Sequence record: OP177727.1 | Reading direction: 5' to 3' (one strand) | Origin: Escherichia phage pEC-M2929-1AR.1 | DNA: 64,000 bases | Shown: piece after piece, positions 281 to 42,117 of the stretch | Layout: each line of letters starts with the position of its first letter | Numbering within the stretch: position 1 is the stretch's first letter | The notes under the pieces: generated by a model | The model's database searches: none | What the model saw: only the letters and a program-made list of their open reading frames with translations | Told to the model about the DNA's origin: nothing | Made by a program: the position numbers and the translations under genes

Positions 281-356
281 TGGTCGTGGTAAACGGAGTC
301 GAACCGTTGTTTCTCGATTATCGGTCGAGTGTACTAACCATCTGTACGATACCACA
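281..356 (-). tRNA. tRNA, anticodon GAU (Ile-type); CCA encoded
   Basis: Hand-folded cloverleaf: acceptor 7 bp, D stem GTAC/GTAC, anticodon stem CTCGA/TCGAG with loop CCGATAA, T arm AACGG-TTCGACT-CCGTT; position 33 is C, which is unusual. Confidence 0.55.
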
Positions 357-361
357 ATAAT

Positions 362-450
362 TGGCAGCAAGGTGAGGAATCGAACCCCTTGATCTATGGT
401 TTGGAGCCATATTGAGTACCATACTCTTTTAAATCTACCCGGCTATGAGT
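362..450 (-). tRNA. tRNA-like element, possible degenerate tRNA (anticodon-like loop CCA)
   Basis: Good anticodon arm (TATGG-CTCCAAA-CCATA) and T loop TTCGATT with CCA end, but no acceptor or D stem could be paired by hand. Confidence 0.3.
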
Positions 451-502
451 TCCTTGAAGTGTCAATGTAACTTAATCATTACACCAGAAGGGAGGTATTT
501 AT

Positions 503-581
503 TGGAGGCGGGAGTTGGATTTGAACCAACGATCTCCAGCATATGAAACTGGCGAGGACGACCAGACTCCTCTATCCCGCA
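503..581 (-). tRNA. tRNA, anticodon CAU (Met, fMet or Ile2 type)
   Basis: Acceptor TGCGGGA/TCCCGCC with 1-72 mismatch, D stem GAGG/CCTC, anticodon arm CCAGT-TTCATAT-GCTGG, T arm GTTGG-TTCAAAT-CCAAC, CCA encoded. Confidence 0.6.
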
Positions 582-596
582 CAATCTGTAATAATT

Positions 597-672
597 TGGT
601 TGATAGTAAGAGAATCGAACTCTTCTCGCAATGCCTTATGAAAGCACTCGAAACGCCAGCTTCACACTATCA
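597..672 (-). tRNA. tRNA, probable anticodon CAU
   Basis: Acceptor TGATAGT/ACTATCA, T arm AAGAG-TTCGATT-CTCTT, anticodon loop TTCATAA; D arm not cleanly resolved by hand. Confidence 0.5.
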
Positions 673-764
673 ATGGCTAACCCTTTATAACCCGTCTTGG
701 CGTGGTATCCTTGATAGGACGGTGGATATCCGTTGCAAACCCTATGATATCTCTTAGATATGGT

Positions 765-844
765 AGCTAAGGTGAGACTCGAACTCACAATCCCCTGGGG
801 CAATACGTTCTAAGCGTATCGTGTATACCATTCCACCACTTAGC
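765..844 (-). tRNA. tRNA-Leu, anticodon UAG (type II, long variable arm)
   Basis: Acceptor GCTAAGT/CCTTAGC, anticodon arm ATACG-CTTAGAA-CGTAT, variable stem CCCC/GGGG, T arm GTGAG-TTCGAGT-CTCAC; CCA not encoded. Confidence 0.6.
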
Positions 845-922
845 CATAATAAGTACACCACTGTAAGAAGCCTCAATGTGCTATTGACAGTTAACCAAGT
901 CTACTCCTTGGATGGTGTTATT

Positions 923-997
923 TGGTGCAGAGAGATGGTAACGATCCATCCTTTCTACCTTTTCAGGGTAGCACTAATCCGTCTCAGCTATCTCTGC
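923..997 (-). tRNA. tRNA-Phe, anticodon GAA
   Basis: Acceptor GCAGAGA/TCTCTGC, anticodon arm CTACC-CTGAAAA-GGTAG, T stem GATGG/CCATC with atypical T loop ATCGTTA. Confidence 0.55.
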
Positions 998-1002
998 AAA
1001 TT

Positions 1003-1078
1003 TGGTCAGTGCGGCAGGACTCGAACCTGCGACCCGAAGCATCCAAAGCTCCCACGCTACCAACTGCGCTACGCACTG
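1003..1078 (-). tRNA. tRNA-Pro, anticodon UGG
   Basis: Acceptor CAGTGCG/CGCACTG, D stem GCGC/GCGT, anticodon arm GGAGC-TTTGGAT-GCTTC, T arm GCAGG-TTCGAGT-CCTGC, CCA encoded. Confidence 0.65.
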
Positions 1079-1085
1079 TAAATAT

Positions 1086-1160
1086 TGGCTGGAGATCTAG
1101 GAATCGAACCTAGTCATCACGACTTCAAAGGCCGTTGCCTTCCCACTAGGCTAATCTCCA
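1086..1160 (-). tRNA. tRNA-Gln, anticodon UUG
   Basis: Acceptor TGGAGAT/ATCTCCA, anticodon arm ACGGC-CTTTGAA-GTCGT, T arm CTAGG-TTCGATT-CCTAG, CCA encoded. Confidence 0.65.
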
Positions 1161-1259
1161 ATAAAACTAAAAATCACTTAAAAAGAACCGCTAGAGTTTG
1201 AAGGAGAAAACCATGAGCGAAAAGAGAAATTTTCTCTAGCGATTCCATTTAAATAATCT

Positions 1260-1333
1260 TGGAGCGAGTAACAGGACTTGAACCTGCACCTGGAGGGTGG
1301 AAACCTCATATGCTACCATTAACACTATACCCG
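1260..1333 (-). tRNA. tRNA-Gly, anticodon UCC
   Basis: Acceptor GCGGGTA/TACTCGC (one G-U), anticodon stem GAGG/CCTC with loop TTTCCAC, T arm GCAGG-TTCAAGT-CCTGT. Confidence 0.6.
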
Positions 1334-1389
1334 CTTAACAATATTACTCTAACATATTATTAGCCCCTTTGTCAAGAGGCTTTTGATAT

Positions 1390-1719
1390 TTATTTTAAAA
1401 TAGTAGATGCACCACGTCTGTTTAGATATGCAATAGTAAAATCCAAATCACCTATTTCTTCAGGTTCCCACTGACCTTCTAAACCATAACAAGAACAATG
1501 ATATGCGTGTACTTCATAAAACAAAGATGTTTTCATATCATAAAAATAAACGTGAGATTCACCTTCATAATATGCACAATCATAAGTGGCAGAAAGAATT
1601 ACAATGTTATCCTTATCTAACTCTACTTCATAATATCTTTCAACATCTTCAATATCATCAAAACCATCGAAAACATTGATATTAAAATATTTCTCTAACT
1701 CTTTTTCTGTCACATACAC
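1390..1719 (-). CDS. hypothetical protein (109 aa) embedded in tRNA cluster
   Basis: ORF track; AAGGAG RBS 5 nt upstream of ATG on minus strand; flanked by tRNA genes. Confidence 0.6.
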   Translation of the reverse strand: MYVTEKELEKYFNINVFDGFDDIEDVERYYEVELDKDNIVILSATYDCAYYEGESHVYFYDMKTSLFYEVHAYHCSCYGLEGQWEPEEIGDLDFTIAYLNRRGASTILK

Positions 1720-1736
1720 TCCTTTAGAGTTAAAAT

Positions 1737-1811
1737 TGGTGCTCCCACAAGGACTCGAACCCTGATAAGTTGCTTACAAGGCAACCGTAATAGCCGTTAT
1801 ACGATAGGAGC
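1737..1811 (-). tRNA. tRNA-Thr, anticodon UGU
   Basis: Acceptor GCTCCTA/TGGGAGC, anticodon arm GTTGC-CTTGTAA-GCAAC, T arm CAGGG-TTCGAGT-CCTTG, CCA encoded. Confidence 0.65.
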
Positions 1812-1890
1812 AAAATATTTGCTTGGTAGGATTTGATACCTACAATTCTAGAAAATTCTAGAGGTTTCTATTAACTCTACAAGCACTATT

Positions 1891-1975
1891 TGGCGATGGA
1901 TCAAGGATTTGAACCTTGCTAGAACTTTCGTTCACGGATTAACAGTCCGTCGCCCAACCACTAGGCCAATCCATC
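1891..1975 (-). tRNA. type II tRNA (long variable arm) with anticodon GUU (Asn-type anticodon on Ser/Leu/Tyr-type body)
   Basis: Acceptor GATGGAT/ATCCATC, anticodon arm ACGGA-CTGTTAA-TCCGT, variable arm stem GAAC/GTTC, T arm CAAGG-TTCAAAT-CCTTG. Confidence 0.5.
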
Positions 1976-1982
1976 TTTAATT

Positions 1983-2070
1983 TGGTGCAGGTAGTTGGAC
2001 TCGAACCAACGAAGCCCCGAAGGGCAGGAGATTTACAGTCTCCAGCAATTGCCGCTATGCGATACCTACG
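1983..2070 (-). tRNA. tRNA-Tyr, anticodon GUA (type II)
   Basis: Acceptor GTAGGTA/TACCTGC, anticodon arm GGAGA-CTGTAAA-TCTCC, long variable arm, T arm GTTGG-TTCGAGT-CCAAC. Confidence 0.65.
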
Positions 2071-2074
2071 TGTT

Positions 2075-2150
2075 TGGTACATCGTGAAGGATTCGAACCT
2101 TCGACCTTGGAGTTAAAAGCCCCTTGCTCTACCAACTAAGCTAACGATGT
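2075..2150 (-). tRNA. tRNA-Lys, anticodon UUU
   Basis: Acceptor ACATCGT/ACGATGT, D stem GCTT/GAGC, anticodon loop CTTTTAA, T arm GAAGG-TTCGAAT-CCTTC. Confidence 0.65.
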
Positions 2151-2284
2151 ATAAATTATCTTTAAAATAGCCAGTGTTTGCGGCACTTGACTATGAAGTA
2201 TTAGGGTATCGGTAAGATGGTGGAGGCCATCTGCCGAAAGTTTACTCTATTAAAGTAAGATTACAAGCTACATTAAAGATAACT

Positions 2285-2370
2285 TGGCGGTAGATGTAGG
2301 ACTTGAACCTACACGCCGTTTCCGACGACAGTTTAGCAAACTGTTGTGGCTACCATTTCACCAATCTACC
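2285..2370 (-). tRNA. tRNA-Ser, anticodon GCU (type II)
   Basis: Acceptor GGTAGAT/ATCTACC, anticodon arm ACAGT-TTGCTAA-ACTGT, long variable arm, T arm GTAGG-TTCAAGT-CCTAC. Confidence 0.65.
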
Positions 2371-2378
2371 GTTCTTAA

Positions 2379-2531
2379 TTATTCAAAACAACCGGAATCT
2401 TTTTGTTCTGCTTTTACCATACGAATATTTTTACCATCTTCAGATTGTTGAAGATTAGAATACTCATAAACAACTTTATTATCTACAATCTTAACTCCGG
2501 TAACAACCTGTCCAATAGTTTTATAATTCAT
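2379..2531 (-). CDS. small hypothetical protein (50 aa)
   Basis: Track ORF 2379-2579 trimmed to internal ATG at 2531 because the upstream part overlaps a tRNA; AGGAG RBS 4 nt upstream of that ATG. Confidence 0.45.
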   Translation of the reverse strand: MNYKTIGQVVTGVKIVDNKVVYEYSNLQQSEDGKNIRMVKAEQKDSGCFE

Positions 2532-2549
2532 AAAGCTCCTAGTTGAATT

Positions 2550-2639
2550 TGGAGGAAGATAATGGAGTCGAACCATCACCGTATCGCTACAATGGGCCAG
2601 GGTTCAAACCTGGTTGCGCACCGCTGCGCCCTACCTTCC
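2550..2639 (-). tRNA. tRNA-Ser, anticodon UGA (type II)
   Basis: Acceptor GGAAGGT/ATCTTCC, anticodon arm CCAGG-TTTGAAC-CCTGG, T arm GATGG-TTCGACT-CCATT, CCA encoded. Confidence 0.55.
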
Positions 2640-2702
2640 CGTTATCATACTTTAAATCTAACATAAAACTATCTTGTTTGTCAAGTAGTTTTTAAAACTT
2701 TT

Positions 2703-2784
2703 TGGTCGGGGTGACAGGATTCGAACCTGCATACTCCAATTACTCGGTTAACGCCTGATTAGAAGTCAGGTGAGATACACCCCG
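2703..2784 (-). tRNA. tRNA, identity unresolved (candidate anticodon loop CTTCTAA = UCU, Arg-type)
   Basis: Acceptor CGGGGTG/CACCCCG and T arm GCAGG-TTCGAAT-CCTGT are clear; the 47-nt interior could not be folded into a canonical D plus anticodon arm by hand. Confidence 0.4.
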
Positions 2785-2856
2785 TTTTCACAGTAACTAT
2801 AACAAAAAACTAAGTGAATGTCAAGATATTTTTACTAAAATTATTATTTAAATTGA

Positions 2857-2962
2857 AGCCTAGTTATGGAATCGAACCATATTTCGTATTTAGTTAGACA
2901 AAGCGGTCTAACATATTTTTCAGGCTTTGATGGCCTCGGAATTACCAAATACCCTACTAGGC
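2857..2962 (-). ncRNA. oversized tRNA-like RNA (about 106 nt)
   Basis: Perfect 7-bp acceptor-like pairing (GCCTAGT/ACTAGGC) and canonical T arm (TATGG-TTCGATT-CCATA) enclose a 74-nt interior containing hairpin GTTAGAC-CGCTTTG-GTCTAAC. Confidence 0.35.
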
Positions 2963-2964
2963 GT

Positions 2965-3050
2965 TGGTGCAAGTGGAGGGATTCGAACCCTCAATCATTT
3001 AAGCGTTGCGTTTTAAGCACAATGTGTATCACCAATTCCACCACACTTGC
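2965..3050 (-). tRNA. tRNA-Leu, anticodon UAA (type II)
   Basis: Acceptor GCAAGTG/CACTTGC, anticodon arm TTGTG-CTTAAAA-CGCAA, long variable arm, T arm GAGGG-TTCGAAT-CCCTC. Confidence 0.6.
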
Positions 3051-3081
3051 ATATAGGAGATGCATAGCATCTCCTTTTAAA

Positions 3082-3157
3082 TGGTGGTTCCCCAGGGTTA
3101 CAATCCCTGCCCTCGACACTTATGAGGTGTGCGCTCTCGTCAGTGAGCTATGGAACC
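3082..3157 (-). tRNA. tRNA, anticodon CAU (Met-type)
   Basis: Acceptor GGTTCCA/GGGAACC, D arm GCTC-ACTGACGA-GAGC, anticodon loop CTCATAA, T stem CAGGG/CCCTG with atypical loop ATTGTAA. Confidence 0.5.
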
Positions 3158-3904: not shown

Positions 3905-5638
3905 TTAGTCAACCTGGATGGTTCCCATAGTACGAAGAACCTCTACATCAACACGGTTGCGGATATCAGTGAATGTTTCATCACGTCCTTCTACTTGTGG
4001 TGTAATAACCTTACCATTCTTGAAGATAACTTGTAACTCATTGTCTTCATCCTGGATATCTTTAAAAGAAAGATTATCTACAAGAGAAAGATTACCATTG
4101 GTATCCTTAACAACCTTAATAAAACCTTTTGCAGAGCGTTTACCAGGATCAGTTTTAGGCTCCTTACTTACCAAAATTTCGTGTTCACCGATGATACTAC
4201 CTGTTGCTTTAACAGCAAAACCAAAAGTATCTCGTGTATTGAACTGATAAGTATAACTACCAACACCAAATACAATATTGGAAGCTGCAAAACCTTTCTT
4301 CTTCAGTCGGCGTAAGATCTCGTGTTCTCGTTCAACAGTAATAGAATCACCATAAATCATACCGATATGCTGATCAAGAACCTTGTAACCTTTTCGGTTG
4401 ATAGTACCACCAAACACTTCCCAAAGGATTTGAATAGAACCTACTGCTTCACAATAAGGAATCTCATAAGTTTCATCAATGCAATCAGCAACACTGCAAT
4501 CCTGAAGAACATTGTAATACTTATTAACATCAGCCAAATGAACTACTTCAGTGGCTGTCGCAATACCATTATTTAAGAGGTCTTCATAGTTATCAAAAGA
4601 TTCAACATTGTATCCTGCAACAACTTTAACCGGATCTCCTGAATCTGGACGAATAACAAGACGACCATTTCGTGACATAATGGAATCTTTCAATTCTACC
4701 AGAATGCGAGTCAATACAGCCCAATAGTCATAAGAGTCTGCTACATATGAACAAAAACCTTCTGGAACAATTTCTTCGATATAACGACGAAGAAACTCTT
4801 TTTCTGCTACATAACGAAGCCCATCTACATCATCTTTAAGATGTGGAAAATGTTTCTTCAGATCTTCAACAATAGCTCCAATGTTAGTCGTTGCTACTGA
4901 ATGTTCTGTTGCCGGAATCGAACCTGCAACAAACTGATCATAATCAATACCATAATAATCATGCACAGTTTCAATAGCCAGAATATTATCTGTTCCTGTG
5001 AACGATGCCAAGTGAGCGATACCACTCTTATAACCATCTTCGATATTACTTAAACCACGTAGGCTAAAGTCATGACACTGGAAGTTAACGTGATCAATAT
5101 TATCACACGTTGCCATCGCATATGCCATAGCGATACGCTTATACTGAAAAGCTGCTGTAGCGTTAGTCATTGTCTTCCAAGTTTCATCTGACAACAGTGT
5201 TTCCACATAGTTAGTTAACCAAAAGAATTTTTCTAAAGTATTATGCACAGTAAACACAGGAACACCAATAGGACACAAAACACCTTCTGGCAGAGATCGA
5301 ACTTCCAGCGGAAGATAACCTAAATCGTGCAATTCTCCCCAACATTCAGCAGAAGGAGCAGAAGCACCTAATGCATTTTTAGACATACGATAAAATTTAT
5401 TTACTGCTGCACTACGAGACATTTTAAAGAAGCTATCCCACATAGTTACAAGAGCATCAGTGACTGCTCGACGAATACCTAAAACAATCACACCACGTGC
5501 TTCACGATCTGCATAGTGTGCAAAGTTTTTATCATTACGAGGAGTTAAATTAGAGAAAATAAGTTTTGTATTTTGGTTGTACATCTGCTTGTGACCAGGT
5601 TTGTACCAATCAGTAGCAAAAGGTGCAAAAATATTCAT
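3905..5638 (-). CDS. nadV: nicotinamide phosphoribosyltransferase family protein (NadV/NAMPT-like; candidate Namat of a NARP1-type module)
   Basis: 577 aa; NAMPT-family blocks DWYK, LPLEVRSLPEG, FTVHNT, HDFSLRG, SFTGTDN, RPDSGDP recognised by eye against known NAMPT sequences. Confidence 0.85.
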   Translation of the reverse strand: MNIFAPFATDWYKPGHKQMYNQNTKLIFSNLTPRNDKNFAHYADREARGVIVLGIRRAVTDALVTMWDSFFKMSRSAAVNKFYRMSKNALGASAPSAECWGELHDLGYLPLEVRSLPEGVLCPIGVPVFTVHNTLEKFFWLTNYVETLLSDETWKTMTNATAAFQYKRIAMAYAMATCDNIDHVNFQCHDFSLRGLSNIEDGYKSGIAHLASFTGTDNILAIETVHDYYGIDYDQFVAGSIPATEHSVATTNIGAIVEDLKKHFPHLKDDVDGLRYVAEKEFLRRYIEEIVPEGFCSYVADSYDYWAVLTRILVELKDSIMSRNGRLVIRPDSGDPVKVVAGYNVESFDNYEDLLNNGIATATEVVHLADVNKYYNVLQDCSVADCIDETYEIPYCEAVGSIQILWEVFGGTINRKGYKVLDQHIGMIYGDSITVEREHEILRRLKKKGFAASNIVFGVGSYTYQFNTRDTFGFAVKATGSIIGEHEILVSKEPKTDPGKRSAKGFIKVVKDTNGNLSLVDNLSFKDIQDEDNELQVIFKNGKVITPQVEGRDETFTDIRNRVDVEVLRTMGTIQVD

Positions 5639-5709
5639 AGTTATGTCTCCTTGTTTGTTAATGTGGGAGTATCTTACTAAGCATACTCCCTATTGTCAAC
5701 ACTTATTAT

Positions 5710-6603
5710 TTAAAAATTCCACACATATGGAGATACAATTTGTTGTTGCAAATCTGACTGATTCTTAACAAGAACACCGGAATCTTCTTGGATGTTATCT
5801 TCCCACACATTAAGAGAGTGAATACAGTCAAAGTGCTCACTTAACTCTTTAAGACCTTTAGAAAAGATACCGTGTGTAACATATAGCTCAATCTTACCTG
5901 CGTTACGAGCACGTAGCACTTTAGCCAATTCGATAAAAGTTCTACCACCATCACAGATATCATCTACGATCATCAGGTTACGCTTATTGAAATCCTGTAC
6001 AGAAATGTCTGTACGAACAATAGCACCTGTTGCGGTATCTCTAACCTTCTCTGCACAGAACACATCTAAAGACATTTTCTTAGATAATTTAAATATTTTC
6101 TTAAGAGCACCACCATCAGGGCTAACAAGAGCAAAATTCTCCATACGTAACTTCCACTTTAAAGTTTCGTAAGCAATCTCTTCTTGAGGTATTACACAGA
6201 GTCTGTCAAACACTGCTGGAGTAACATCACTATGCGGATCAGCAACGATAACACGTGAGAAATTTAATGAATTAATTATAGAAGCAAATGCTTTAACTCC
6301 AAATGCTTCCCCAGGCTCACACACTCTGTCTTGTCGTGCATACGGCACATACAACATGAGTAAATCAACACAATATGGTTTATGATATAGCATATTGTCC
6401 AATGCATTCTTAGTCATAACCAAAGTCATCAAGTCTTTAGCAGATCTTACTTCTAAAGTGAGTAAGATTCTGTCTGTAGTATGATTGAAAACTGATAGAT
6501 TCGTATCTAACTGAACATGTTGTTCTCCACCAGAGAATGTAAACACTTTAACGTCTACATCAGTAACATAACAGTCAACACCATGCAGAATACTAACTTT
6601 CAT
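5710..6603 (-). CDS. prs: ribose-phosphate pyrophosphokinase family protein (Prs-like; candidate Adps of a NARP1-type module)
   Basis: 297 aa; PRPP-synthetase blocks VPYARQDR, LVSPDGG, PRPP-binding loop MIVDDICDGGRT, VTHGIFS. Confidence 0.8.
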   Translation of the reverse strand: MKVSILHGVDCYVTDVDVKVFTFSGGEQHVQLDTNLSVFNHTTDRILLTLEVRSAKDLMTLVMTKNALDNMLYHKPYCVDLLMLYVPYARQDRVCEPGEAFGVKAFASIINSLNFSRVIVADPHSDVTPAVFDRLCVIPQEEIAYETLKWKLRMENFALVSPDGGALKKIFKLSKKMSLDVFCAEKVRDTATGAIVRTDISVQDFNKRNLMIVDDICDGGRTFIELAKVLRARNAGKIELYVTHGIFSKGLKELSEHFDCIHSLNVWEDNIQEDSGVLVKNQSDLQQQIVSPYVWNF

Positions 6604-7381: not shown

Positions 7382-7447
7382 TGGGATCACAAAGTGCGTC
7401 ACAAGCATTTGCGATTGTTTAACACATTTTAAACAAAGGAAAAATAA

Positions 7448-7645: not shown

Positions 7646-7881
7646 AAAAAGAAATTTTAACTGATGTAACATATTCTTGTATTAGCAAAGGCGGTTTATA
7701 TCGTGTAGTTGGCTTTCCTAAACCAGCGGGTGTATCTAAAGTATTTGATCCTGTTGTGATCTACGAAGATGTAAGGACTGGTCAACAGTATTGGCGATTC
7801 CAGCAAGATTTCTTACACCGCATGGAGGTTGTTGATGGCGAAAACACCGAAGAAGCGATCCGTAACAAAGCGCGCATCTAA
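7642..7881 (+). CDS. hypothetical protein (79 aa)
   Basis: ORF track; ATGA start/stop overlap with upstream gene. Confidence 0.5.
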   Translation: MKKEILTDVTYSCISKGGLYRVVGFPKPAGVSKVFDPVVIYEDVRTGQQYWRFQQDFLHRMEVVDGENTEEAIRNKARI

Positions 7882-8170
7882 AGATGGGGCGGCAAAAGCC
7901 GCTCCTAAGAAACAAAAATTTGACACAGAGGCTTTTGTCTTTGATACTCCAATAGAAAAGATAGAAGAAGCTCTTGCTAAATTTGAAGCACGTGATGCAG
8001 ATCCTATGGCAGATCCTTTCACAGAAGATGAATTGTACTGGTTTGGCTGGTGGGTTTTGAATCTACCAGAAGCTAAAAAACGAGGAATGAAGTCAGTTCC
8101 TATTTGCGCAAAAGAGTCGGCTGTGTTAGGTTTATACGAGAAGCCTAAAAGAAGGAGCAAAAAGAAATGA
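7835..8170 (+). CDS. hypothetical basic protein (Lys/Arg-rich termini)
   Basis: Track ORF trimmed to ATG at 7835 with GGAGG 6 nt upstream; overlaps previous gene in another frame. Confidence 0.45.
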   Translation: MAKTPKKRSVTKRASKDGAAKAAPKKQKFDTEAFVFDTPIEKIEEALAKFEARDADPMADPFTEDELYWFGWWVLNLPEAKKRGMKSVPICAKESAVLGLYEKPKRRSKKK

Positions 8171-8445
8171 GAAAAACTTATCTGAAGTGTTTGTCTGTTG
8201 TGCAAAATGAATGGTATTCAGGTTTGCTGACAGCAGGTAAGAAATATGAAGTGCTCAATAAACCAGGGGCAAGATTTTCATTAATTAAGAACGACAAAGG
8301 CACTGAAATGCTTATTTCAGTTGCAGATTCTATGTATGGTACTTTTGAGTTGGTCTATGAATATGTACCAATTATTCTTGAATACAGCGGTACAAACAAA
8401 CCTTACACAGCTTTAGATGTGATCAACAACAAAAGGAATAAGTAA
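8167..8445 (+). CDS. hypothetical protein (92 aa)
   Basis: ORF track; overlapping start with upstream stop. Confidence 0.5.
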   Translation: MRKTYLKCLSVVQNEWYSGLLTAGKKYEVLNKPGARFSLIKNDKGTEMLISVADSMYGTFELVYEYVPIILEYSGTNKPYTALDVINNKRNK

Positions 8446-8636
8446 TGTTCCTTATTTATTCAGGTAAAGCCAAATACATGCAAGGTGTGAAGCGTGTAGA
8501 AGTAGTAGATACTGTAACTATAGGAAAATCCTTTATTCTTTATTTGTTTTATATCAATGGAGAAAGATTTGCTGTTTCTAAGAAGTTGGTAGATAATGGT
8601 AAAACTTGGAAAGAAGAGAAACAGGAAGGGGGTTGA
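8445..8636 (+). CDS. hypothetical protein (63 aa)
   Basis: ORF track; ATG overlaps upstream stop (TAATG). Confidence 0.45.
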   Translation: MFLIYSGKAKYMQGVKRVEVVDTVTIGKSFILYLFYINGERFAVSKKLVDNGKTWKEEKQEGG

Positions 8637-8637
8637 T

Positions 8638-8980
8638 AGTGGCTAAAATTCTTTGGTTAGATGATTTAAGAGATCCTAAAGATTATGGTTATGAGGATGC
8701 TATTTGGTTAAAATCTTTTGAGGATTGGTTATCTTTTGTTTCAGATGAAGATAATTTCAATAATATCTCAGAGATACACTTCGATAATGATCTTGGAGAA
8801 GATCAGGAAGGATATCATGCATTCTTAGACGTAGAATGTATGTTGTATGCGGGTGAATGGGATGCTCTTAAGACTATCTATGTCCATACATCAAACCCTT
8901 CTGCTGCTGGTAAATATATGTTAGCTAAGGAAAATTTTATTTCATCCTATGGTGTTGAAATTAAACGTGTTAACTATTAA
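8638..8980 (+). CDS. hypothetical protein
   Basis: Track ORF 8606-8980; probable GTG start at 8638 after GGAAGGGGG. Confidence 0.45.
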
Positions 8981-8989
8981 GGAGGTGTT

Positions 8990-9136
8990 ATGCTTTATGT
9001 TATTTGGATAGATGAAGGGGATGGGTTTTATATATACAAACACACTAACCATTGGCCCGATGTAGAAAAAGCACTTGCAACTTTTGAAGATTGCTTTTAC
9101 GATATACATACAGACGAAGAGTATGAAGAAAATTGA
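8990..9136 (+). CDS. small hypothetical protein (48 aa)
   Basis: Hand-translated MLYVIWIDEGDGFYIYKHTNHWPDVEKALATFEDCFYDIHTDEEYEEN; AAGGAGGTG RBS; below ORF-track cutoff. Confidence 0.45.
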   Translation: MLYVIWIDEGDGFYIYKHTNHWPDVEKALATFEDCFYDIHTDEEYEEN

Positions 9137-9495
9137 TGTGCGCTACTAATCAACATGATATTTGTTACCAACCTCTTACTTGGATTGGTGAGGATCACTA
9201 TGCTCAACGTGTTATAGTATGCGCTGCGAATAAGTATATTCTCAACAATGGCGAAGAGTTAATTATTCCTTGTGTTAGGCATGCAAATCCTGTACTATCT
9301 GCACAACTTAATGTTTTAAAAGATGCAGGATTGATTGATAAACTGTTTTGCTTACCTGATAATCAAGGGTTTATTGATCAGTATTATAACTGGTGGAGTC
9401 GCAAAGATGCTTATATCATTGCAGATAATGCCAAACAAATTAATTATGAAAGAAATGGTCACGACAGTGAACTATTCAGCGAGGGATTATACTAA
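9133..9495 (+). CDS. hypothetical protein (120 aa)
   Basis: ORF track; overlapping stop/start with neighbours. Confidence 0.5.
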   Translation: MMCATNQHDICYQPLTWIGEDHYAQRVIVCAANKYILNNGEELIIPCVRHANPVLSAQLNVLKDAGLIDKLFCLPDNQGFIDQYYNWWSRKDAYIIADNAKQINYERNGHDSELFSEGLY

Positions 9496-10046
9496 TGTTT
9501 ATTACAAGTGATTTGCATTTTATGCACAAACGTATCCGAGAGTTTGCTCCTGAATATCGCCCGTGGGAAGATATGGAGCATATGACAGAAGCACTGATCG
9601 AAGCATGGAATAAATGTGCCACAACACCAGGAGTAAAGATGTACCATCTTGGGGACTTCTGTTTCGGGACTGAAGAAGATACCCGTAAAATTGCTTCACG
9701 TCTTCAAGGTGATATTACTTACTGTGTTGGGAACCATGATTACAGCAAACACCGAGAAGTGCTTGCAGAATATGGTGAGGTTGTGTATTATGACGAAGTG
9801 AAATATCAGAAACTGTTCTTCGTCTTAAGTCATTATCCTATGGCTTCCTGGAATAAACAAGGACATGGATCAATCATGCTACACGGGCACTCTCACGGAT
9901 CATTCCCTGATCATTTGTATGGGAAAATGTTGGATGTTGGTTGGGACGCACACGGAAAAATCTTGCATTTTGACGAAATCATCTCTATTATGGATAAACG
10001 TGATATTGTTGTTGTAGACCATCATAAGATAATCAAAGGAGATTAA
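9495..10046 (+). CDS. calcineurin-like metallophosphoesterase (candidate RNA/DNA 3'-phosphatase)
   Basis: Motifs DLHF, GDFCFG, GNHD, HGHSHG typical of the metallophosphoesterase superfamily. Confidence 0.7.
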   Translation: MFITSDLHFMHKRIREFAPEYRPWEDMEHMTEALIEAWNKCATTPGVKMYHLGDFCFGTEEDTRKIASRLQGDITYCVGNHDYSKHREVLAEYGEVVYYDEVKYQKLFFVLSHYPMASWNKQGHGSIMLHGHSHGSFPDHLYGKMLDVGWDAHGKILHFDEIISIMDKRDIVVVDHHKIIKGD

Positions 10047-10047
10047 G

Positions 10048-10980
10048 GTGGCTAAGTTCAATTGTGATGACCTGATTGCAAAAGGTTTAGTGCATAAAAA
10101 AGAAGTTAAATCTGGAGAGTATGCTGGTCTTGCTGTACTTAAATACAAAAACAATGTATTCTGGGATAACTTGTGGAACGTTGACAAACGACTTCTAGAT
10201 TGTCGTGGGTTGGTTGTTGACTCAGAAGATAATGTTGTTATTTGGCCTTTTACTAAAATCTTTAATCGTTTTGAGAATGGTACAGATCTTCCAGCAGACC
10301 AGCTTGTAGATGCTGTCCGTAAAGTAAACGGTTTTATGGCATCTGTAGGTGTGTACAAAGGGCAACTTATTGTATCAACAACAGGGAGCCTAGAGTCAGA
10401 TTTTGCAACTCTTGCCAAGAACCATATTGTTTCCGAGTGTGATGACATAGAATATTTCATTAAGTGGACAGAAAGTGCAAAAGCAACTTTCCTTTTTGAA
10501 ATCTGTGATCCTTCTGATCCACATATTGTTGAAGAAGAACCAGGTGCATACTTAATTGGAGCAAGAATTCAAAATGATGATGGGACAAGTTTCATGCTAC
10601 CTGAAGGTGTGCTCGATGGGATTGCATCTATTACAAAATTTAAACGTCCTGAAGTTTATCCGATGATTAAATTTTCAGATGTTGTTGAAATGTCTAAACA
10701 TTGTAAGCACGAAGGGTTTGTTGTTCGTGAAACAAACTATCCGTTTAACTTGCTGTTAAAGATTAAGTCACCATACTATCTTGCTAAGAAATTCCTTATG
10801 CGTGGTGGCAATAAGAAGTGGGATATGATTTGGGACAACCCAAAAAATGCTAAACAAATTGTTGACGAAGAATATTATACTTTGCTAGAATGGCTTCGAA
10901 ACAACTTTACTAAGACTCAATGGGCTGCTTTAGATCCACAAGAGCGACGTAAAGAAATAGAAAACTTCTTTGGAGGCTAA
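10048..10980 (+). CDS. ATP-dependent RNA ligase-like nucleotidyltransferase
   Basis: Covalent nucleotidyltransferase motifs: KVNG (motif I), FLFEICDP (III), EGFVVRE (IV), LLLKIKSP (V). Confidence 0.6.
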   Translation: MAKFNCDDLIAKGLVHKKEVKSGEYAGLAVLKYKNNVFWDNLWNVDKRLLDCRGLVVDSEDNVVIWPFTKIFNRFENGTDLPADQLVDAVRKVNGFMASVGVYKGQLIVSTTGSLESDFATLAKNHIVSECDDIEYFIKWTESAKATFLFEICDPSDPHIVEEEPGAYLIGARIQNDDGTSFMLPEGVLDGIASITKFKRPEVYPMIKFSDVVEMSKHCKHEGFVVRETNYPFNLLLKIKSPYYLAKKFLMRGGNKKWDMIWDNPKNAKQIVDEEYYTLLEWLRNNFTKTQWAALDPQERRKEIENFFGG

Positions 10981-11385
10981 ATGAAACAACTTATCATTTT
11001 ACGTGGTGTTTCAGGTGCAGGTAAATCTACAGTAGCAGAAATTATTTCTGAAGGTTATTGGCCTATCTGTGAGGCAGATCAATATCATTACACAGAAAGT
11101 GGTGTTTACGATTGGAAGCCAGAGAATGTAGGTAAAGCACACGCATGGTGTCAGAGTATTGTTCGTGATGCTATGGCATCTAATATTAAAAAGATTATTG
11201 TCTCTAACACTTCAACCACAGAGAAAGAACTTAAACCTTATTTTACTCTTGCTGAAGAGTTTGGTTATCAAGTTATCTCCTTAGTTGTTGAAAATAGGCA
11301 CGGTAACGACTCAATTCATGAGGTTCCACAACATACTCGTGATCAGCAAGAGAAACGTCTTCGCAGTTCACTTAAGTTACAATAA
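10981..11385 (+). CDS. P-loop kinase (polynucleotide 5'-kinase-like)
   Basis: Walker A GVSGAGKST near N-terminus, about 134 aa; directly follows the ligase with ATGA overlap. Confidence 0.55.
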   Translation: MKQLIILRGVSGAGKSTVAEIISEGYWPICEADQYHYTESGVYDWKPENVGKAHAWCQSIVRDAMASNIKKIIVSNTSTTEKELKPYFTLAEEFGYQVISLVVENRHGNDSIHEVPQHTRDQQEKRLRSSLKLQ

Positions 11386-11394
11386 GGAGAGTGT

Positions 11395-11715
11395 ATGGAA
11401 ATTTATTCTGGTGAAGGTAAGTATTTTACAGTAGTCGATAATGGTGAAATTATTATTTATCGCTACGGAAGTGAGTGGAGGAACGAGACAGGAGACGGCT
11501 ATATCTTATCTTTGCTCCGTTTGATTAATGATCTTACGGAAGAACTTGAAGAAACAAAACGTTCATATGATGATCAAGTAGATTCATTAGAAAACATTAT
11601 TTCAGATCTAAATGAAGAAGTTTGTTATTTGAGTGGACAAGTTTCAGAGTTAACACTGGAATGTGAAGATTTAGGTGATGTTATTGCAGATTTAAATGAA
11701 CGTCTTAAGGATTAA
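11395..11715 (+). CDS. hypothetical acidic protein with predicted coiled coil
   Basis: ORF track; GGAGAG RBS upstream. Confidence 0.5.
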   Translation: MEIYSGEGKYFTVVDNGEIIIYRYGSEWRNETGDGYILSLLRLINDLTEELEETKRSYDDQVDSLENIISDLNEEVCYLSGQVSELTLECEDLGDVIADLNERLKD

Positions 11716-11718
11716 TAT

Positions 11719-11943
11719 ATGAGTACAGCTATCTATGTTAAAGGTGTAAGCGAAGATCAACAAATGTTATTCTCATTTGGTGAGAATACTGAAATGGAAG
11801 ATATGTTTAATGATATCCTTGATGCTCTTTCTTCGGAAGGGTTCACAATGATTACATACTTTATGGCAACATCTTCTGAATACGTTGATACAGATCTTGA
11901 AGATTTGATGGAAGAGATTCAAACTCTTGTGTATAATTGGTAA
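11719..11943 (+). CDS. hypothetical acidic protein (74 aa)
   Basis: ORF track. Confidence 0.45.
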   Translation: MSTAIYVKGVSEDQQMLFSFGENTEMEDMFNDILDALSSEGFTMITYFMATSSEYVDTDLEDLMEEIQTLVYNW

Positions 11944-11951
11944 GGGTAACT

Positions 11952-12140
11952 ATGACATTTATTGAAGAACTAACGAGAATTGCAAACGCACCTAACAGTA
12001 GCGAAGATCCTTACTTTATGGTGGATGATTACACTGGTGGTAATATTGATGATGCCTATGAACTAGGCAGACTACACGGTGAAATTGAAATGGCTAAATG
12101 GGTTCTTTCGCAACTGGAGGTTAAAGATGAAACAAACTAA
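11952..12140 (+). CDS. hypothetical protein
   Basis: Track ORF 11937-12140; ATG at 11952 preceded by AAGGGTAACT. Confidence 0.4.
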   Translation: MTFIEELTRIANAPNSSEDPYFMVDDYTGGNIDDAYELGRLHGEIEMAKWVLSQLEVKDETN

Positions 12141-13242: not shown

Positions 13243-13251
13243 GAGGTAAAT

Positions 13252-13440: not shown

Positions 13441-14163
13441 ATGATCGAGAATTTTTTCAAACAAGTAAAAGTGGACAATAGCTTCTTTATCAAGGCTGCC
13501 GATCAAATTGTTGCTTGGAATGCTAAGGCACGTGGTGGCGTAACCCCAGAATTTACTCAAGAGATGTTTGAAGCTCAACTTTCTTTTGTACGAGAAGAAC
13601 TAAAAGAGTTCCAAGCAGCAGCACAGGAAAATGATCACGTTGAATTACTTGATGCAGCAGCAGATATTTTTGTGGTAGCATCCTACCTGGCATTTATGTT
13701 CTTTGGTAAAGAAGGTGTTGATAAAGCTCTGGAAATGCCGACAGGAGATGTTCTGGCAGAAAACATTTACGACGTTATCATTGAATTTGATAAAATGATA
13801 GAAAATGACTTGCAATTTGCCCTAATGTCTCTTACACTTACACGTATGGCACGAGATACTTTGGTACGTTCTGTTTATAACGAGAAGAAGGTTATGCGTG
13901 AAGTGTTGAATAGCAATGAGTCCAAGTATCCTACCAAAAAGCAACTCCTGGCTATTTGGGAAACTAAGGATATTGTTGAAGCTCTTGAAAAAGAGTGTGA
14001 TGCTATCGAGATGCGAAGCAAAGATCGTGCAGAAGGTTCTTATACTGGAGTACATGCTGTATATAACGAAGTTCAAAAGGTATACGTATTCTTTGATGAC
14101 AAAGGTAAAATTATGAAGCCATCTACCTTTGTTAAACCTAATATCGCAGCAATCATTGCTTAA
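13441..14163 (+). CDS. MazG-like all-alpha NTP pyrophosphohydrolase (tentative)
   Basis: EExxE...E..D pattern (REELKEFQAAAQENDHVELLDAAADIF) resembling MazG/dCTPase family; GGAGAAACA RBS. Confidence 0.35.
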   Translation: MIENFFKQVKVDNSFFIKAADQIVAWNAKARGGVTPEFTQEMFEAQLSFVREELKEFQAAAQENDHVELLDAAADIFVVASYLAFMFFGKEGVDKALEMPTGDVLAENIYDVIIEFDKMIENDLQFALMSLTLTRMARDTLVRSVYNEKKVMREVLNSNESKYPTKKQLLAIWETKDIVEALEKECDAIEMRSKDRAEGSYTGVHAVYNEVQKVYVFFDDKGKIMKPSTFVKPNIAAIIA

Positions 14164-40762: not shown

Positions 40763-41317
40763 ATGGGTTTTGATGATATGTTATTATATGAGGAGGCTTG
40801 TGTGAAAGAAGCTATGGCTTTACCAGTTTTATCTATTGATATTACAACAGTAGACACTTTTTCAGATTGTGAAACGTGTGGATCGTATTCATCTATTGTA
40901 CATGAAGTCAGTGGGGATTTAGGCACTTACGAAGATGGAGATTATGCAAGTTGTTTAGGTGATAATCGAGATGGTGAAGTGGCGAATGTTGCAAACTGGA
41001 TTGCTTCTAAGTTAAAAGAAAGAAATCGTCCGTTCCCTAATCTTCTTACACCAGAAGCTATGCTTAAAGCTGAAGAAGAGATGTATGATTATGGTGATAA
41101 AGTAGCTCATGATTACAATGATCCTAATTATAAAAAATTGAGTGATAAGTATTGGGAACTAGCTAATGCTTATGATAAATACTACTCTACAGAAAACATT
41201 GTTAAATTGTTTTTAGATTTTGGAGTAGAAATTAATTGGGATTTCGAAGAGGAAGAGCGTTACGACGCATCTTCTTGGGATGATGATTACGAAGAGGATA
41301 TTGAATGCGAAGAGTAA
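40763..41317 (+). CDS. hypothetical acidic protein (Asp/Glu-rich C-terminus)
   Basis: Track ORF 40748-41317 trimmed to ATG at 40763 after GGAGGATAT; C-terminus EEEERYDASSWDDDYEEDIECEE. Confidence 0.5.
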   Translation: MGFDDMLLYEEACVKEAMALPVLSIDITTVDTFSDCETCGSYSSIVHEVSGDLGTYEDGDYASCLGDNRDGEVANVANWIASKLKERNRPFPNLLTPEAMLKAEEEMYDYGDKVAHDYNDPNYKKLSDKYWELANAYDKYYSTENIVKLFLDFGVEINWDFEEEERYDASSWDDDYEEDIECEE

Positions 41318-42117
41318 TTTTTGTCAGTGGTGCAGGTTTAAGTGCAGACAGTGGGATTCGAACATTCCGAACAGACACAGACAGTGGTCGTGCTTTATGG
41401 GAAGAATATGATTTAGAAGAGGTCTGCGATATTGGAGCTTTCCAAGCAGGTTATCGTGTGAGAACATCTCCAGATCTTCCAGTGGTTGGTGGTGTAGACG
41501 AAAATGGTATGGATTTGTATGCCAAAACACACGAATTTTATAACAAAAGACGTGTTGAGCTTAAAGATGTACAACCTAATGCTGCACATATTCAAATAGC
41601 AAAGTGGTTTAAGGAATATCCTAACCAAGTAATAAACTTGACAACAAACGTTGATGATCTACTAGAGCGAGCAGGTGTAGACAGAGATTCGGTTATTCAC
41701 GTGCACGGATATCTTCCTGAAGTAGTTTACCGTATGCATCCTGGAGATTACAAAACACTGGTAGATATTGGTTACAACAGCATAAACATAGATGATTATA
41801 ACTGGGTGAAGCCTAATGTTGTATTTTTTGGTGAGGCTGCACCTTTGTATGCAGATATGGCTCACTTGTTCGATACTTTGACCATGCAAGATTTGGTTGT
41901 TGTAGTAGGATGTTCAAACCAAGTTATCAATTTTAATTGGGAATTATTCCCTGCACTTAATATGGGTACAAAAATGATTGTTGTTAACCCAGGAATTAAT
42001 TACGAAGAAACTCTTCTTTACGAAGATAGAGGAGTCTTTGTTTATCGAGAAAAAGCCGCAGATGCTTTTAGCAATCCTGCTTTCATAAAAATGATAGAAG
42101 ATCATTTGACTAAATAA
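41305..42117 (+). CDS. Sir2-family (sirtuin-like) NAD-binding protein lacking zinc-ribbon cysteines
   Basis: GAGLSADSGIRTFR, TTNVDDLLERAG, HVHG, VVFFGE and VVVVGCSNQV blocks in sirtuin order; no CxxC pairs between the His and FGE blocks. Confidence 0.7.
   Translation: MRRVIFVSGAGLSADSGIRTFRTDTDSGRALWEEYDLEEVCDIGAFQAGYRVRTSPDLPVVGGVDENGMDLYAKTHEFYNKRRVELKDVQPNAAHIQIAKWFKEYPNQVINLTTNVDDLLERAGVDRDSVIHVHGYLPEVVYRMHPGDYKTLVDIGYNSINIDDYNWVKPNVVFFGEAAPLYADMAHLFDTLTMQDLVVVVGCSNQVINFNWELFPALNMGTKMIVVNPGINYEETLLYEDRGVFVYREKAADAFSNPAFIKMIEDHLTK

Follow-up and report, generated by a model that had tools for sequence, protein, structure and literature searches.

The 64,000-nucleotide stretch of DNA analyzed here (Escherichia phage pEC-M2929-1AR.1, OP177727.1; hereafter the window) belongs to a phAPEC8-like coliphage, with 98.6% identity to sequenced phages, and carries on its + strand three adjacent genes that probably constitute a split heal-and-seal RNA repair module. 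Their products are predicted to be a binuclear metallophosphoesterase (MPE) of the aq_1665 clade (183 aa, 9495..10046), an Rnl1-type ATP-dependent RNA ligase (310 aa, GTG start, 10048..10980) and a stand-alone P-loop kinase of the polynucleotide 5′-kinase type (134 aa, 10981..11385), and the three proteins probably possess the biochemical activities predicted for them. As a predicted set of activities, heal-and-seal is well supported because the trio is co-inherited, re-ordered and fused across lineages, and because bacteria combine a fused kinase-ligase with the same type of MPE. Relatives are already annotated alike, and its type of neighborhood has been described in rV5-like phages (Iyer et al., 2022).

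The three genes are tightly packed: the stop codon of the preceding ORF (9133-9495) overlaps the MPE start in the junction TAATG, the MPE stop TAA is separated by one base from the GTG of the ligase gene, and no base separates the ligase stop TAA from the kinase ATG. Every upstream ORF contains, within its 3′ end, a Shine-Dalgarno-like GGAG/GGAGG motif, and the MPE, ligase and kinase genes are translationally coupled. A first-pass annotation had described three consecutive, tightly coupled genes bearing phosphoesterase, nucleotidyltransferase and Walker A motifs, and the description was accurate: the coordinates are exact, stops and starts overlap or abut, and the motifs are real and invariant across homologues. 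The close relative PaulScherrer carries the trio under the annotation “phosphoesterase / RNA ligase / polynucleotide kinase.” A single trifunctional Pnkp polypeptide was rejected, as three separate ORFs each have their own start and stop. The ORF overlapping the MPE gene (9133..9495, + strand) codes for a small protein of the T4_Y16D family (phrog_839, E 3e-47; homologues carry PF26092), which among the fetched loci is present in close relatives only. No Pfam methyltransferase match indicative of a Hen1 2′-O-methyltransferase was found among the ORFs scanned from 6974 to 14163, a set from which the small ORFs at 7448-7881, 8445-8636, 8990-9136 and 11719-12140 were left out.

By its sequence, the ligase is an RNA ligase of the T4 Rnl1 type. 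It matches Pfam PF09511 RNA_lig_T4_1 at 53.5 bits (cut-off 28.3) over profile positions 2-227 of 227 and phrog_562 with E 6e-69, and a profile of 15 homologues found a sole match in the PDB, namely T4 Rnl1 (E 7e-14). The nucleotidyltransferase motifs are I (K92-V-N-G95, with the predicted adenylylation lysine K92 at codon 10321-10323), III (E151), IV (E222-G223) and V (K238-x-K240); R53, K70, F72, K92, G95, E151, E222, G223, K238 and K240 are invariant in the 15 diverged homologues. These invariant residues align with 10 of the 11 T4 Rnl1 residues reported as essential from mutagenesis by the Shuman laboratory (R54, K75, F77, K99, G102, K119, E159, E227, G228, K240, and K242), the exception being K119, which is aligned with a stretch S-T-T-G. 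The window ligase is 64 aa shorter than T4 Rnl1 and lacks its all-helical C-terminal domain: the profile alignment stops at T4 residue 249, and motif V is followed by only ~65 residues, with conserved positions of their own (Y244, K248, R252, E274, E275, and R300). In T4 Rnl1 this domain (residues about 255-374) confers tRNA specificity, and because the window ligase is devoid of it, tRNA as the ligase substrate is a prediction only. A DNA-ligase paralogue, which the first-pass annotation had named as a possible refutation, was rejected, given that T4 Rnl1 alone was matched in the PDB and that a separate DNA ligase is encoded at 12079-13242.

The kinase is well supported, by sequence and by its predicted structure, as a putative polynucleotide 5′-kinase. 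Its Walker A motif G9-x-x-G12-x-G14-K15-S16 and the predicted catalytic residue D33 (codon 11077-11079) are invariant in 46 homologues, and the protein matches Pfam AAA_33 (E 8e-10), phrog_2071 (E 5e-58), and phrog_505 ‘polynucleotide kinase’ (E 5.5e-9). In the PDB, the top match of its profile is Pnkp1 (1e-6), followed by Mucorales RNA 5′-OH kinases (8e-6 and 1e-5), T4 Pnk (5e-5) and CthPnkp (1.6e-4), whereas gluconate kinase (5e-3) and NRK1 (0.08) match more weakly. The AF2 model (pLDDT 91.5) was best superposed by Foldseek on the CthPnkp kinase (TM 0.80) and then on T4 Pnk (TM 0.75), against TM 0.43-0.53 for adenylate and UMP-CMP kinases. D33 aligns with D35 of T4 Pnk, the general-base aspartate after strand 2. 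Of R38, D85, and R126, the nucleic-acid and phosphate contacts of T4 Pnk, the first two lack counterparts, being aligned with H36 and N76, while R106 aligns with T4 R122 rather than R126; the family has an invariant set of its own (H36, H54, C57, H107, and H113). An NMP or dNMP kinase, the other refutation that the first-pass annotation had put forward, was rejected because the nearest relatives in both sequence and fold are RNA/polynucleotide 5′-kinases.

The MPE is the predicted healer of RNA 2′,3′-cyclic-phosphate or 3′-phosphate ends. Its motifs D6-x-H8, G53-D54, G79-N80-H81, H113 and G131-H132-x-H134 conform to the two-metal binding pattern DxH / GD / GNH(D/E) / H / GHxH; D6, H8, G53, D54, G79, N80, H81, H113, G131, H132 and H134, and hence all predicted metal ligands, are invariant in 48 sequences. 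The protein matches phrog_547 (E 3e-55), and scores 21.5 bits against Pfam Metallophos_2, under the cut-off of 27. Membership in the lambda-phosphatase/CthPnkp phosphatase clade was rejected, for the MPE groups with the clade of Aquifex aeolicus aq_1665 (PDB 1XM7), to which it shows a specific relationship and which is its only solved relative, a structural-genomics protein with no assigned function. The phage MPE shows no specific kinship to the sole MPE known to heal RNA ends. It is its genomic company, an RNA ligase and a kinase, that hints at what this orphan clade may do, and not the reverse. The profile searches proposed in the first-pass annotation thus led from the kinase to Pnkp1, T4 Pnk and CthPnkp and from the ligase to Rnl1, but not from the MPE to the Pnkp phosphatase clade, and the term ‘Pnkp-type’ used there suits the three predicted activities by analogy only. 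Viral metagenomes are rich in MPEs of the aq_1665 type, with at least 554 matches in IMG/VR, and the clade may act on further substrates, since on 47 of 80 viral contigs that carry the MPE no Rnl1-like ligase lies 10 kb or less away. Neither an enzymatic nor a genetic test of the cassette, or of any MPE of the aq_1665 clade, turned up in the literature searched. The 3′-end-healing partner proposed here hence comes from a metagenome-abundant clade lacking characterized members and, if the prediction is true, would represent a third type of RNA 3′-end-healing enzyme besides the HAD and lambda-phosphatase types.

In many lineages the three modules are inherited together, and they also appear in altered order or as fusions. 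The trio is complete at each of the 24 loci retrieved with the ligase, at identities to the window of 33-62% (MPE), 37-79% (ligase) and 35-75% (kinase) and in several gene orders, among them MPE-RNL-KIN, MPE-x-RNL-cREC-KIN-SIR2 and KIN-RNL-MPE; in Vibrio phage Chloris the order is RNL-KIN-MPE. Of 80 viral contigs retrieved with the MPE, 33 have the ligase no more than 10 kb away, in most cases directly next to it, against a background frequency of 1.2% for the ligase clade (606/50,697 phage records). Where this kinase family is missing, a different kinase-like P-loop ORF lies ~3 kb or less from the ligase in five of the nine contigs checked, and one of these ORFs resembles T4-like Pnkp. Relatives of the ligase (37-47% identity) also occur as kinase-ligase fusions in both orders, as Metallophos-ligase fusions and as kinase-Metallophos-ligase fusions of 700-765 aa. 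Trifunctional relatives are exemplified by P0312, P0339, P0353 and P0370, and the healing domains of P0339 match the CthPnkp kinase (4e-8) and phosphatase (3e-16); in P0277, P0305 and P0338 it is the family of the window kinase itself that is joined to the ligase. Fused kinase-ligases of ~500 aa were found at 32 bacterial loci (Moraxella, Neisseria, Kingella, Conchiformibius, Cardiobacteriaceae, and Actinobacillus), 25 of which then have an MPE of the aq_1665 clade (HMM E 1e-47 to 1e-54), and in Moraxella boevrei this unit is surrounded by housekeeping genes. The kinase/ligase/MPE set thus exists as a two-gene unit in genomes of Moraxellaceae, Neisseriaceae, Cardiobacteriaceae and Pasteurellaceae, and this unit, together with the aq_1665-clade MPE, offers readily approachable targets for biochemistry.

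The following scheme of substrates, reaction order and role in the cell is our inference. A substrate RNA, most plausibly a tRNA, would be cut by a metal-independent ribonuclease, which would leave a 2′,3′-cyclic phosphate and a 5′-OH. The MPE would strip the phosphate to yield a 3′-OH, possibly with the help of a cREC domain protein that would open the cyclic phosphate; the 134-aa kinase would then move the gamma-phosphate of an NTP onto the 5′-OH, with D33 acting as general base and K15/S16 holding the NTP; finally, the Rnl1-type ligase, adenylylated on K92, would transfer AMP to the 5′-phosphate and the nick would be sealed. In the infected cell, the module would restore tRNAs cut by host anticodon nucleases, beside the phage tRNA set and the NARP1 counter-defense genes, and we lean slightly toward such a role on the precedent of T4. 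T4 Pnkp and Rnl1 reverse PrrC cleavage of tRNA-Lys, and the MPE domain of C. thermocellum Pnkp is both a 2′,3′-cyclic phosphodiesterase and a phosphatase.

Compared with the PrrC-defeating pair of T4, Pnkp (pseT) and Rnl1 (rnlA/gp63), the window trio is alike in its three chemical steps, which are predicted here, in having a ligase of the same Rnl1 family and a kinase with the same fold and catalytic Asp, and in being encoded by a phage whose genome also carries tRNA genes. On the other hand, T4 has its 3′-phosphatase as a HAD/DxDxT domain on the kinase polypeptide, whereas the window has a separate binuclear MPE and a stand-alone 134-aa kinase, and its three genes are contiguous. The first-pass annotation had opposed the split trio to a “fused T4 Pnk plus Rnl,” a wording that needs correction, as only kinase and phosphatase are fused in T4 (Pnkp) and Rnl1 is separate. 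Bacterial Pnkp systems (Clostridium thermocellum Pnkp/Hen1; Capnocytophaga Pnkp1-Rnl-Hen1) likewise assemble a P-loop kinase, an MPE and an adenylyltransferase ligase as one repair unit; they include the best structural and profile matches of the window kinase, and bona fide kinase and phosphatase domains of the Pnkp type are fused to relatives of the window ligase.

Defenses that cleave tRNA (PrrC, RloC, PARIS, and retron-linked nucleases) are now recognized as common, and phages are thought to answer them either with replacement tRNAs or by repairing the cut tRNAs. Both answers, a tRNA set and a predicted repair module, are found in the window together with NARP1 NAD+ rescue inside 12 kb, an arrangement that fits a counter-defense island. 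The tRNA array (281..3157, − strand) comprises 17 genes, including Lys-UUU, Tyr-GUA, Asn-GUU, Gln-UUG, and Thr-UGU, of which 16 were detected by ARAGORN and one more by Rfam (2706-2784); the first-pass count of about 18 was close but not exact. The NARP1 NAD+ reconstitution pathway (3905..6603, − strand) is represented by Namat (3905-5638; Pfam NAPRTase E 5e-38) and Adps (5710-6603; Pribosyltran/Pribosyl_synth), with PHROG matches, and has remained close to the trio, as a conserved neighbor, in four lineages of phages. Experimental proof of the pathway comes from phage Bas63 (JohannRWettstein); a two-gene NARP1 operon was reported for this and three other BASEL phages (bioRxiv 10.1101/2024.02.11.579819). 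Besides NARP1, genes for DNA ligase and for nucleotide metabolism accompany the cassette, and for this reason the adjacency of its genes may partly reflect an early-gene or counter-defense island rather than a single pathway.

The cassette extends beyond the three genes and includes the gene of a cREC (cyclic-phosphate-processing receiver) domain protein (8639..8980, + strand; Pfam PF20274 cREC_REC E 3e-14, 53.9 bits with the cut-off at 27), which lies two genes upstream of the MPE gene within the same gene string and probably starts at the GTG at 8639, as in the PaulScherrer annotation, the mechanical ORF beginning at 8606. Cyclic-phosphate processing is the predicted role of the domain (PMC7824862), and the protein is likely an accessory end-healing enzyme. 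A computational study (Iyer, Burroughs, Anand, de Souza, Aravind 2022, Viruses 14:1977, section 3.7.3) predicted a sirtuin-centered RNA-repair neighborhood in Escherichia phage V5 and Proteus phage Mydo, made up of a T4-like tRNA ligase, cREC, a ‘nucleotide kinase’, MazG and a calcineurin-like phosphoesterase. The gene set of this type 2 neighborhood is common to the window, where cREC (8639-8980) and the trio (9495-11385) are followed by a MazG/PRA-PH-like nucleotide pyrophosphohydrolase gene (13441..14163, + strand; Pfam PRA-PH E 3e-7; phrog_671 E 6e-28) that belongs to the published type and whose downstream position is conserved in rV5-like loci. The order in the latter is MPE-x-RNL-cREC-KIN-SIR2-DNA ligase-...-MazG, with cREC between ligase and kinase instead of upstream of the MPE, and with SIR2 directly after the kinase, whereas the sole SIR2 gene of the window (41305..42117, + strand; Pfam SIR2 E 1.5e-22) lies ~30 kb from the trio, with a C5 DNA methylase gene two ORFs upstream of it. 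Its product is 60% identical to that of L011:9926-10699 (SIR2, E 2e-23) and is an orthologue of the rV5-like sirtuin.

This company lends itself to a different, rather unlikely scheme, in which RNA repair would depend on NAD+. The cREC protein would convert the 2′,3′-cyclic phosphate into a 2′-phosphate, the short Rnl1-type ligase would seal 2′-PO4/3′-OH ends to the 5′-phosphate made by the kinase, as fungal and plant tRNA ligases do, and the sirtuin, in the part of Tpt1/KptA, would remove the junction 2′-phosphate using NAD+; the MPE would clear the phosphorylated ADP-ribose by-product or leftover RNA 3′-phosphates, and NARP1 would rebuild NAD+. Such repair is not known from any virus; if true, it would account for the lasting association of the trio with NARP1, cREC, Macro and SIR2 genes across several lineages of phages and would give the orphan aq_1665 clade a function.

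It is more doubtful still that the MPE, and perhaps the kinase, act with NARP1 on small molecules derived from NAD+ or ADP-ribose, for instance by trimming ADPR species, phosphorylated or cyclic, that Adps/Namat would then use, or by destroying immune signals, next to an unrelated RNA ligase. NARP1 does lie ~5 kb or less from the trio in Stephanstirmvirinae, rV5-like and Pakpunavirus-like phages and Vibrio phage Chloris, an MPE homologue of Aeromonas phage TS3 sits ~4 kb from Adps/Namat with ligase and kinase absent nearby, another is near NADAR and an NMNAT-like gene, and some enzymes of the MPE superfamily hydrolyze ADPR or NAD+, e.g., in the Metis defense system (10.64898/2026.01.28.702374). 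However, Adps/Namat occur in only 8 of the 80 MPE viral contigs, seven of which also have the ligase, compared with 33 for the ligase itself; the bacterial MPE pairs with the fused kinase-ligase, and no NARP1 genes were seen in the fetched flanks; the phosphatase experimentally shown to extend NARP1 is a Macro-domain protein and not an MPE; and the kinase is nearest to polynucleotide kinases, with NRK1 at E 0.08.

Hardly more probable is a module devoted mainly to DNA repair, in which kinase and MPE would heal 5′-OH and 3′-phosphate DNA ends for the ATP-dependent DNA ligase encoded 700 bp downstream of the trio (12079-13242), next to which are RdgC and exonuclease genes. A DNA ligase gene also precedes the trio in Pakpunavirus-like loci, the structural neighbors of the MPE include nucleases such as the P. 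putida MPE and Mre11, and the polynucleotide kinases of T4 and Cth act on DNA as well. Yet the fusion partner of the kinase and MPE domains is always an Rnl1-type ligase and never a DNA ligase, the fetched flanks of the bacterial two-gene units contain no DNA-ligase match, and DNA ligase is found in 17 of the 80 MPE contigs as opposed to 33 for the RNA ligase.

That the ligase owes its retention chiefly to a non-catalytic part in morphogenesis, like that of T4 gp63 in tail-fiber attachment, with incidental neighbors, is highly improbable: it draws on the PHROG and GenBank label ‘RNA ligase and tail fiber protein attachment catalyst’ and on T4 Rnl1 and gp63 being the same protein, but the label is inherited from T4 with no test in these phages behind it, the catalytic residues are all invariant in the 15 diverged homologues, the gene lies amid early-type nucleotide and RNA metabolism genes and not tail genes, and chromosomal bacterial homologues outside prophages retain the ligase with kinase and MPE. 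‘Tail fiber attachment catalyst’ (phrog_562) is a poor annotation name for the ligase gene, as is ‘ATPase’ (phrog_2071) for the kinase gene.

A metallophosphoesterase (MPE; 9495-10046, 183 aa), an RNA ligase (10048-10980, 310 aa, GTG start) and a kinase (10981-11385, 134 aa) are encoded on the + strand, precisely where the first-pass annotation had placed three open reading frames (ORFs). The trio leaves no intergenic space: the stop codon of the upstream ORF overlaps the MPE start in a TAATG motif, one base lies between the MPE stop and the ligase start, and the ligase stop abuts the kinase ATG, a GGAG-type ribosome-binding motif being located within the 3′ end of every preceding ORF. Since promoter-like sites are not in excess (31, vs. 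26.7 ± 5.3 in shuffled sequence) and mark no operon boundary, and since no terminator-like hairpin was predicted for positions 6840-13380 of the + strand, the trio may lie inside a longer transcription unit. Over a 2.8-kb stretch that includes the cassette, the DNA shares 98.6% identity with Serratia phage KKP_3264 and 95-98.5% with many Escherichia phages of ~148 kb belonging to the phAPEC8-like group (Stephanstirmvirinae).

Part of this picture is already known. The trio is annotated as “putative phosphoesterase,” “RNA ligase,” and “polynucleotide kinase” in the close relative PaulScherrer, a BASEL phage, and other records use the labels “phosphoesterase,” “RNA ligase and tail fiber protein attachment catalyst,” and “ATPase.” The neighborhood type itself was predicted computationally, from Escherichia phage V5 and Proteus phage Mydo, in a paper that also proposed an NAD+-using repair route with the sirtuin taking off a 2′-phosphate (Iyer et al., 2022; PMC9503650, section 3.7.3). 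Experimental work on this neighborhood type was not found in the searchable literature; neither the HIDEN-SEQ preprint nor the PAK_P3 transcriptome paper holds anything on the trio cassette, the latter reporting that the host rtcAB RNA-repair operon is induced by a phage of a ligase-bearing genus. Added here are the placement of the phosphoesterase in the orphan aq_1665 clade, named for an Aquifex aeolicus protein, rather than among Pnkp-type enzymes; the association of this clade with an Rnl1-type ligase in both phages and bacterial chromosomes; and a link, through fused relatives, to bona fide Pnkp domains.

The ligase matches Pfam RNA_lig_T4_1 over its full length (53.5 bits; cut-off 28.3). 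Its single sequence has no match in the PDB and a homologue-built profile was needed; the profile of 15 homologues (40-79% identity) retrieved T4 RNA ligase 1 (Rnl1) as its sole match among all PDB sequences (E = 7e-14). Residues R53, K70, F72, K92, G95, E151, E222, G223, K238, and K240 are invariant among the 15 homologues and align with 10 of the 11 T4 Rnl1 residues that we take to be essential. The alignment ends after motif V, beyond which the window ligase bears a shorter, conserved tail of ~65 residues and, unlike T4 Rnl1, lacks the C-terminal tRNA-specificity domain. That the ligase could be a DNA-ligase paralogue is ruled out, as a separate ATP-dependent DNA ligase is encoded at 12079-13242.

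Taken as a single sequence, the kinase is recognizable merely as a P-loop protein (Pfam AAA_33), its best PDB match being only T4 Pnk at E = 0.24, and a profile was again required. Built from 46 homologues and searched against the PDB, this profile matched Capnocytophaga Pnkp1 (E = 1e-6), two entries of Mucorales RNA 5′-OH kinases (8e-6 and 1e-5), T4 Pnk (5e-5), the Clostridium thermocellum Pnkp (CthPnkp) kinase (1.6e-4), and gluconate kinase (5e-3). The structural model (pLDDT 91.5) superposes best on the CthPnkp kinase (TM 0.80) and T4 Pnk (TM 0.75). In the alignment, D33 occupies the position of D35, the general base of T4 Pnk, and H36 and N76 those of R38 and D85. The kinase and its homologues make up a distinct mini-clade of polynucleotide-kinase-like enzymes; of 317 homologues found, the 120 listed all stand alone and, a few fragments aside, nearly all measure 113-145 aa. 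H36, H54, C57, H107, and H113, none of which is present in T4 Pnk, are invariant or nearly so in the family and could form a metal site or point to a different way of binding the substrate. A dNMP or NMP kinase was rejected, the phrog_139 match being confined to the P-loop (residues 1-36), superposition on adenylate and UMP-CMP kinases being poor (TM just 0.43-0.53), and 134 aa being insufficient for NMP-binding and lid domains. Nicotinamide riboside kinase was likewise discarded, NRK1 appearing at E = 0.08 only.

All metal-binding motifs of binuclear metallophosphoesterases are invariant across 48 homologues of the MPE, and the structural model of the MPE is very confident (pLDDT 94.9). By far the closest relative of the MPE is aq_1665 (PDB 1XM7; profile E = 3e-23), a protein without known function. 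The only known RNA-end-healing MPE has the superfamily in common with the phage enzyme and nothing closer; “Pnkp-type,” as the first-pass annotation had termed the cassette, is therefore valid as an analogy but not as a statement of family membership. The observation made there was right, and the interpretation, a split RNA healing-and-sealing cassette that would counter host anticodon nucleases, was largely so.

The evidence is strongest for the association of the genes, which is seen from four independent angles. The three genes remain together within a few kb in all 24 loci fetched with the ligase, with identity falling to 33% (MPE), 37% (ligase), and 35% (kinase), and in several orders: MPE-ligase-kinase, kinase-ligase-MPE, ligase-kinase-MPE (Vibrio phage Chloris), and, in rV5-like phages, MPE-x-ligase-cREC-kinase-SIR2. 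Among viral contigs fetched with the MPE, 33 of 80 encode the ligase no more than 10 kb away, most often next to it, whereas only 1.2% of phage genome records (606 of 50,697) contain the ligase clade. The kinase family of the window is found in 20 of these 80 contigs; five of nine contigs checked that are devoid of it encode another kinase-like P-loop ORF ~3 kb or less from the ligase, one of them resembling T4-like Pnkp. An exhaustive ligase search (2,060 matches at E ≤ 1e-3) uncovered fused forms among relatives at 37-47% identity, namely kinase-ligase and ligase-kinase fusions carrying the kinase family of the window (E down to 4e-49), a Metallophos-ligase fusion, and kinase-Metallophos-ligase proteins of 700-765 aa. 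The healing domains of one such trifunctional relative, P0339, match the CthPnkp phosphatase (3e-16) and kinase (4e-8) and are true Pnkp relatives. The arrangement in the window is a split form of the trifunctional protein into which a non-orthologous phosphoesterase has been swapped.

Bacterial genomes reached via the ligase alignment provided 37 loci, 32 of which (contigs L112, L114-L141, and L143-L145) contain a fused kinase-ligase ORF of ~500 aa, in Moraxella, Neisseria, Kingella, Conchiformibius, Alysiella, Simonsiella, Cardiobacteriaceae, and Actinobacillus. Downstream of the fusion, 25 of the 32 encode an aq_1665-clade MPE (HMM E = 1e-47 to 1e-54; e.g., L125, 5413-6906 and 6908-7645); the fetched flanks of the six Kingella loci contain no MPE. 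The Moraxella boevrei pair has housekeeping genes around it, with hisG/dam/aroA on one side and a TauE/formate-tetrahydrofolate ligase pair on the other, and is thus chromosomal rather than part of a prophage.

Two genes upstream of the MPE, the + strand encodes a protein with a cREC domain (8606/8639-8980; Pfam E = 3e-14), a divergent receiver domain for which Aravind's group predicts a ring-opening activity on cyclic phosphates in the context of RNA repair (PMC7824862). The mechanical ORF start is a TTG at 8606; a GTG at 8639, after GGAAGGGGG, agrees with the annotated start in PaulScherrer. The interval between cREC and the MPE holds a 48-aa ORF and a gene for a T4_Y16D-family protein of ~119 aa (9133-9495, +; PF26092, phrog_839), the stop of which overlaps the MPE start and which has no Pfam match in the local copy and no meaningful PDB match. 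In rV5-like phages, the cREC gene is located between ligase and kinase. The same slot is occupied in Pseudomonas phiK7A1-like phages by a conserved ORF of 137-139 aa without a Pfam match (L003/L002, 5591-6004; L005, 4505-4924). In rV5-like loci, a sirtuin gene comes immediately after the kinase; its orthologue in the window (SIR2; 41305-42117, +; Pfam E = 1.5e-22), 60% identical, is separated from the cassette by ~30 kb and has a C5 cytosine DNA methylase gene (38984-39973) two ORFs upstream of it. Downstream of the trio are three small ORFs, the DNA ligase gene, and genes for a MazG-like pyrophosphohydrolase, RdgC, and exonucleases.

This analysis establishes the families of the three proteins, their active sites, and the coupling of their genes. 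The substrates, the order of steps, and the target (tRNA cleaved by host anticodon nucleases) are suggested by the precedents of T4 Pnkp/Rnl1-PrrC and bacterial Pnkp. In the most likely mechanism, a metal-independent nuclease would leave a 2′,3′-cyclic phosphate and a 5′-OH on the cut RNA; the MPE would yield a 3′-OH, perhaps once cREC has opened the ring, the kinase would supply the 5′-phosphate, and the ligase would close the break via K92-AMP.

Upstream of the trio and divergent from it, the − strand carries the NARP1 genes Namat (NAMPT-like, 3905-5638) and Adps (Prs-like, 5710-6603), and past these are 17 tRNA genes in one array (281-3157), all detected by ARAGORN except one recovered with Rfam (2706-2784, −; 40 bits). 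NARP1 rebuilds NAD+ from ADP-ribose and nicotinamide, as demonstrated experimentally in phage Bas63; the operon has been reported in four BASEL phages, Bas63 among them. NARP1 lies within ~5 kb of the trio in Stephanstirmvirinae, rV5-like and Pakpunavirus-like phages, and Vibrio phage Chloris, and a Macro (Adpp-like) gene accompanies it in some of these four lineages. An action of the MPE on NAD+ or ADP-ribose has some support, as a homologue in Aeromonas phage TS3 has NARP1 but no ligase nearby and another lies elsewhere close to NADAR and an NMNAT-like gene. However, NARP1 genes are present in only 8 of the 80 MPE contigs, well below the count for the ligase, and are absent from the fetched flanks of the bacterial units; moreover, the proven NARP1-associated phosphatase, Adpp, is a Macro-domain protein, and an identification of the MPE with that enzyme was rejected. 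Healing of DNA rather than RNA ends by the trio is weakened by the fusions, where the partner of the kinase or MPE domain is only ever an RNA ligase and never a DNA ligase. A role of the ligase in tail-fiber attachment, a database label taken over from T4, does not fit the genomic context.

Aeromonas phage TS3 also has a T4_Y16D gene (L027, 8681-8986), located between an MPE homologue and NARP1. In Vibrio phage Chloris, a second, larger Metallophos protein of 249 aa is encoded just upstream of the ligase-kinase-MPE block (L026, 2533-3282), one ligase thereby being flanked by two different MPEs.
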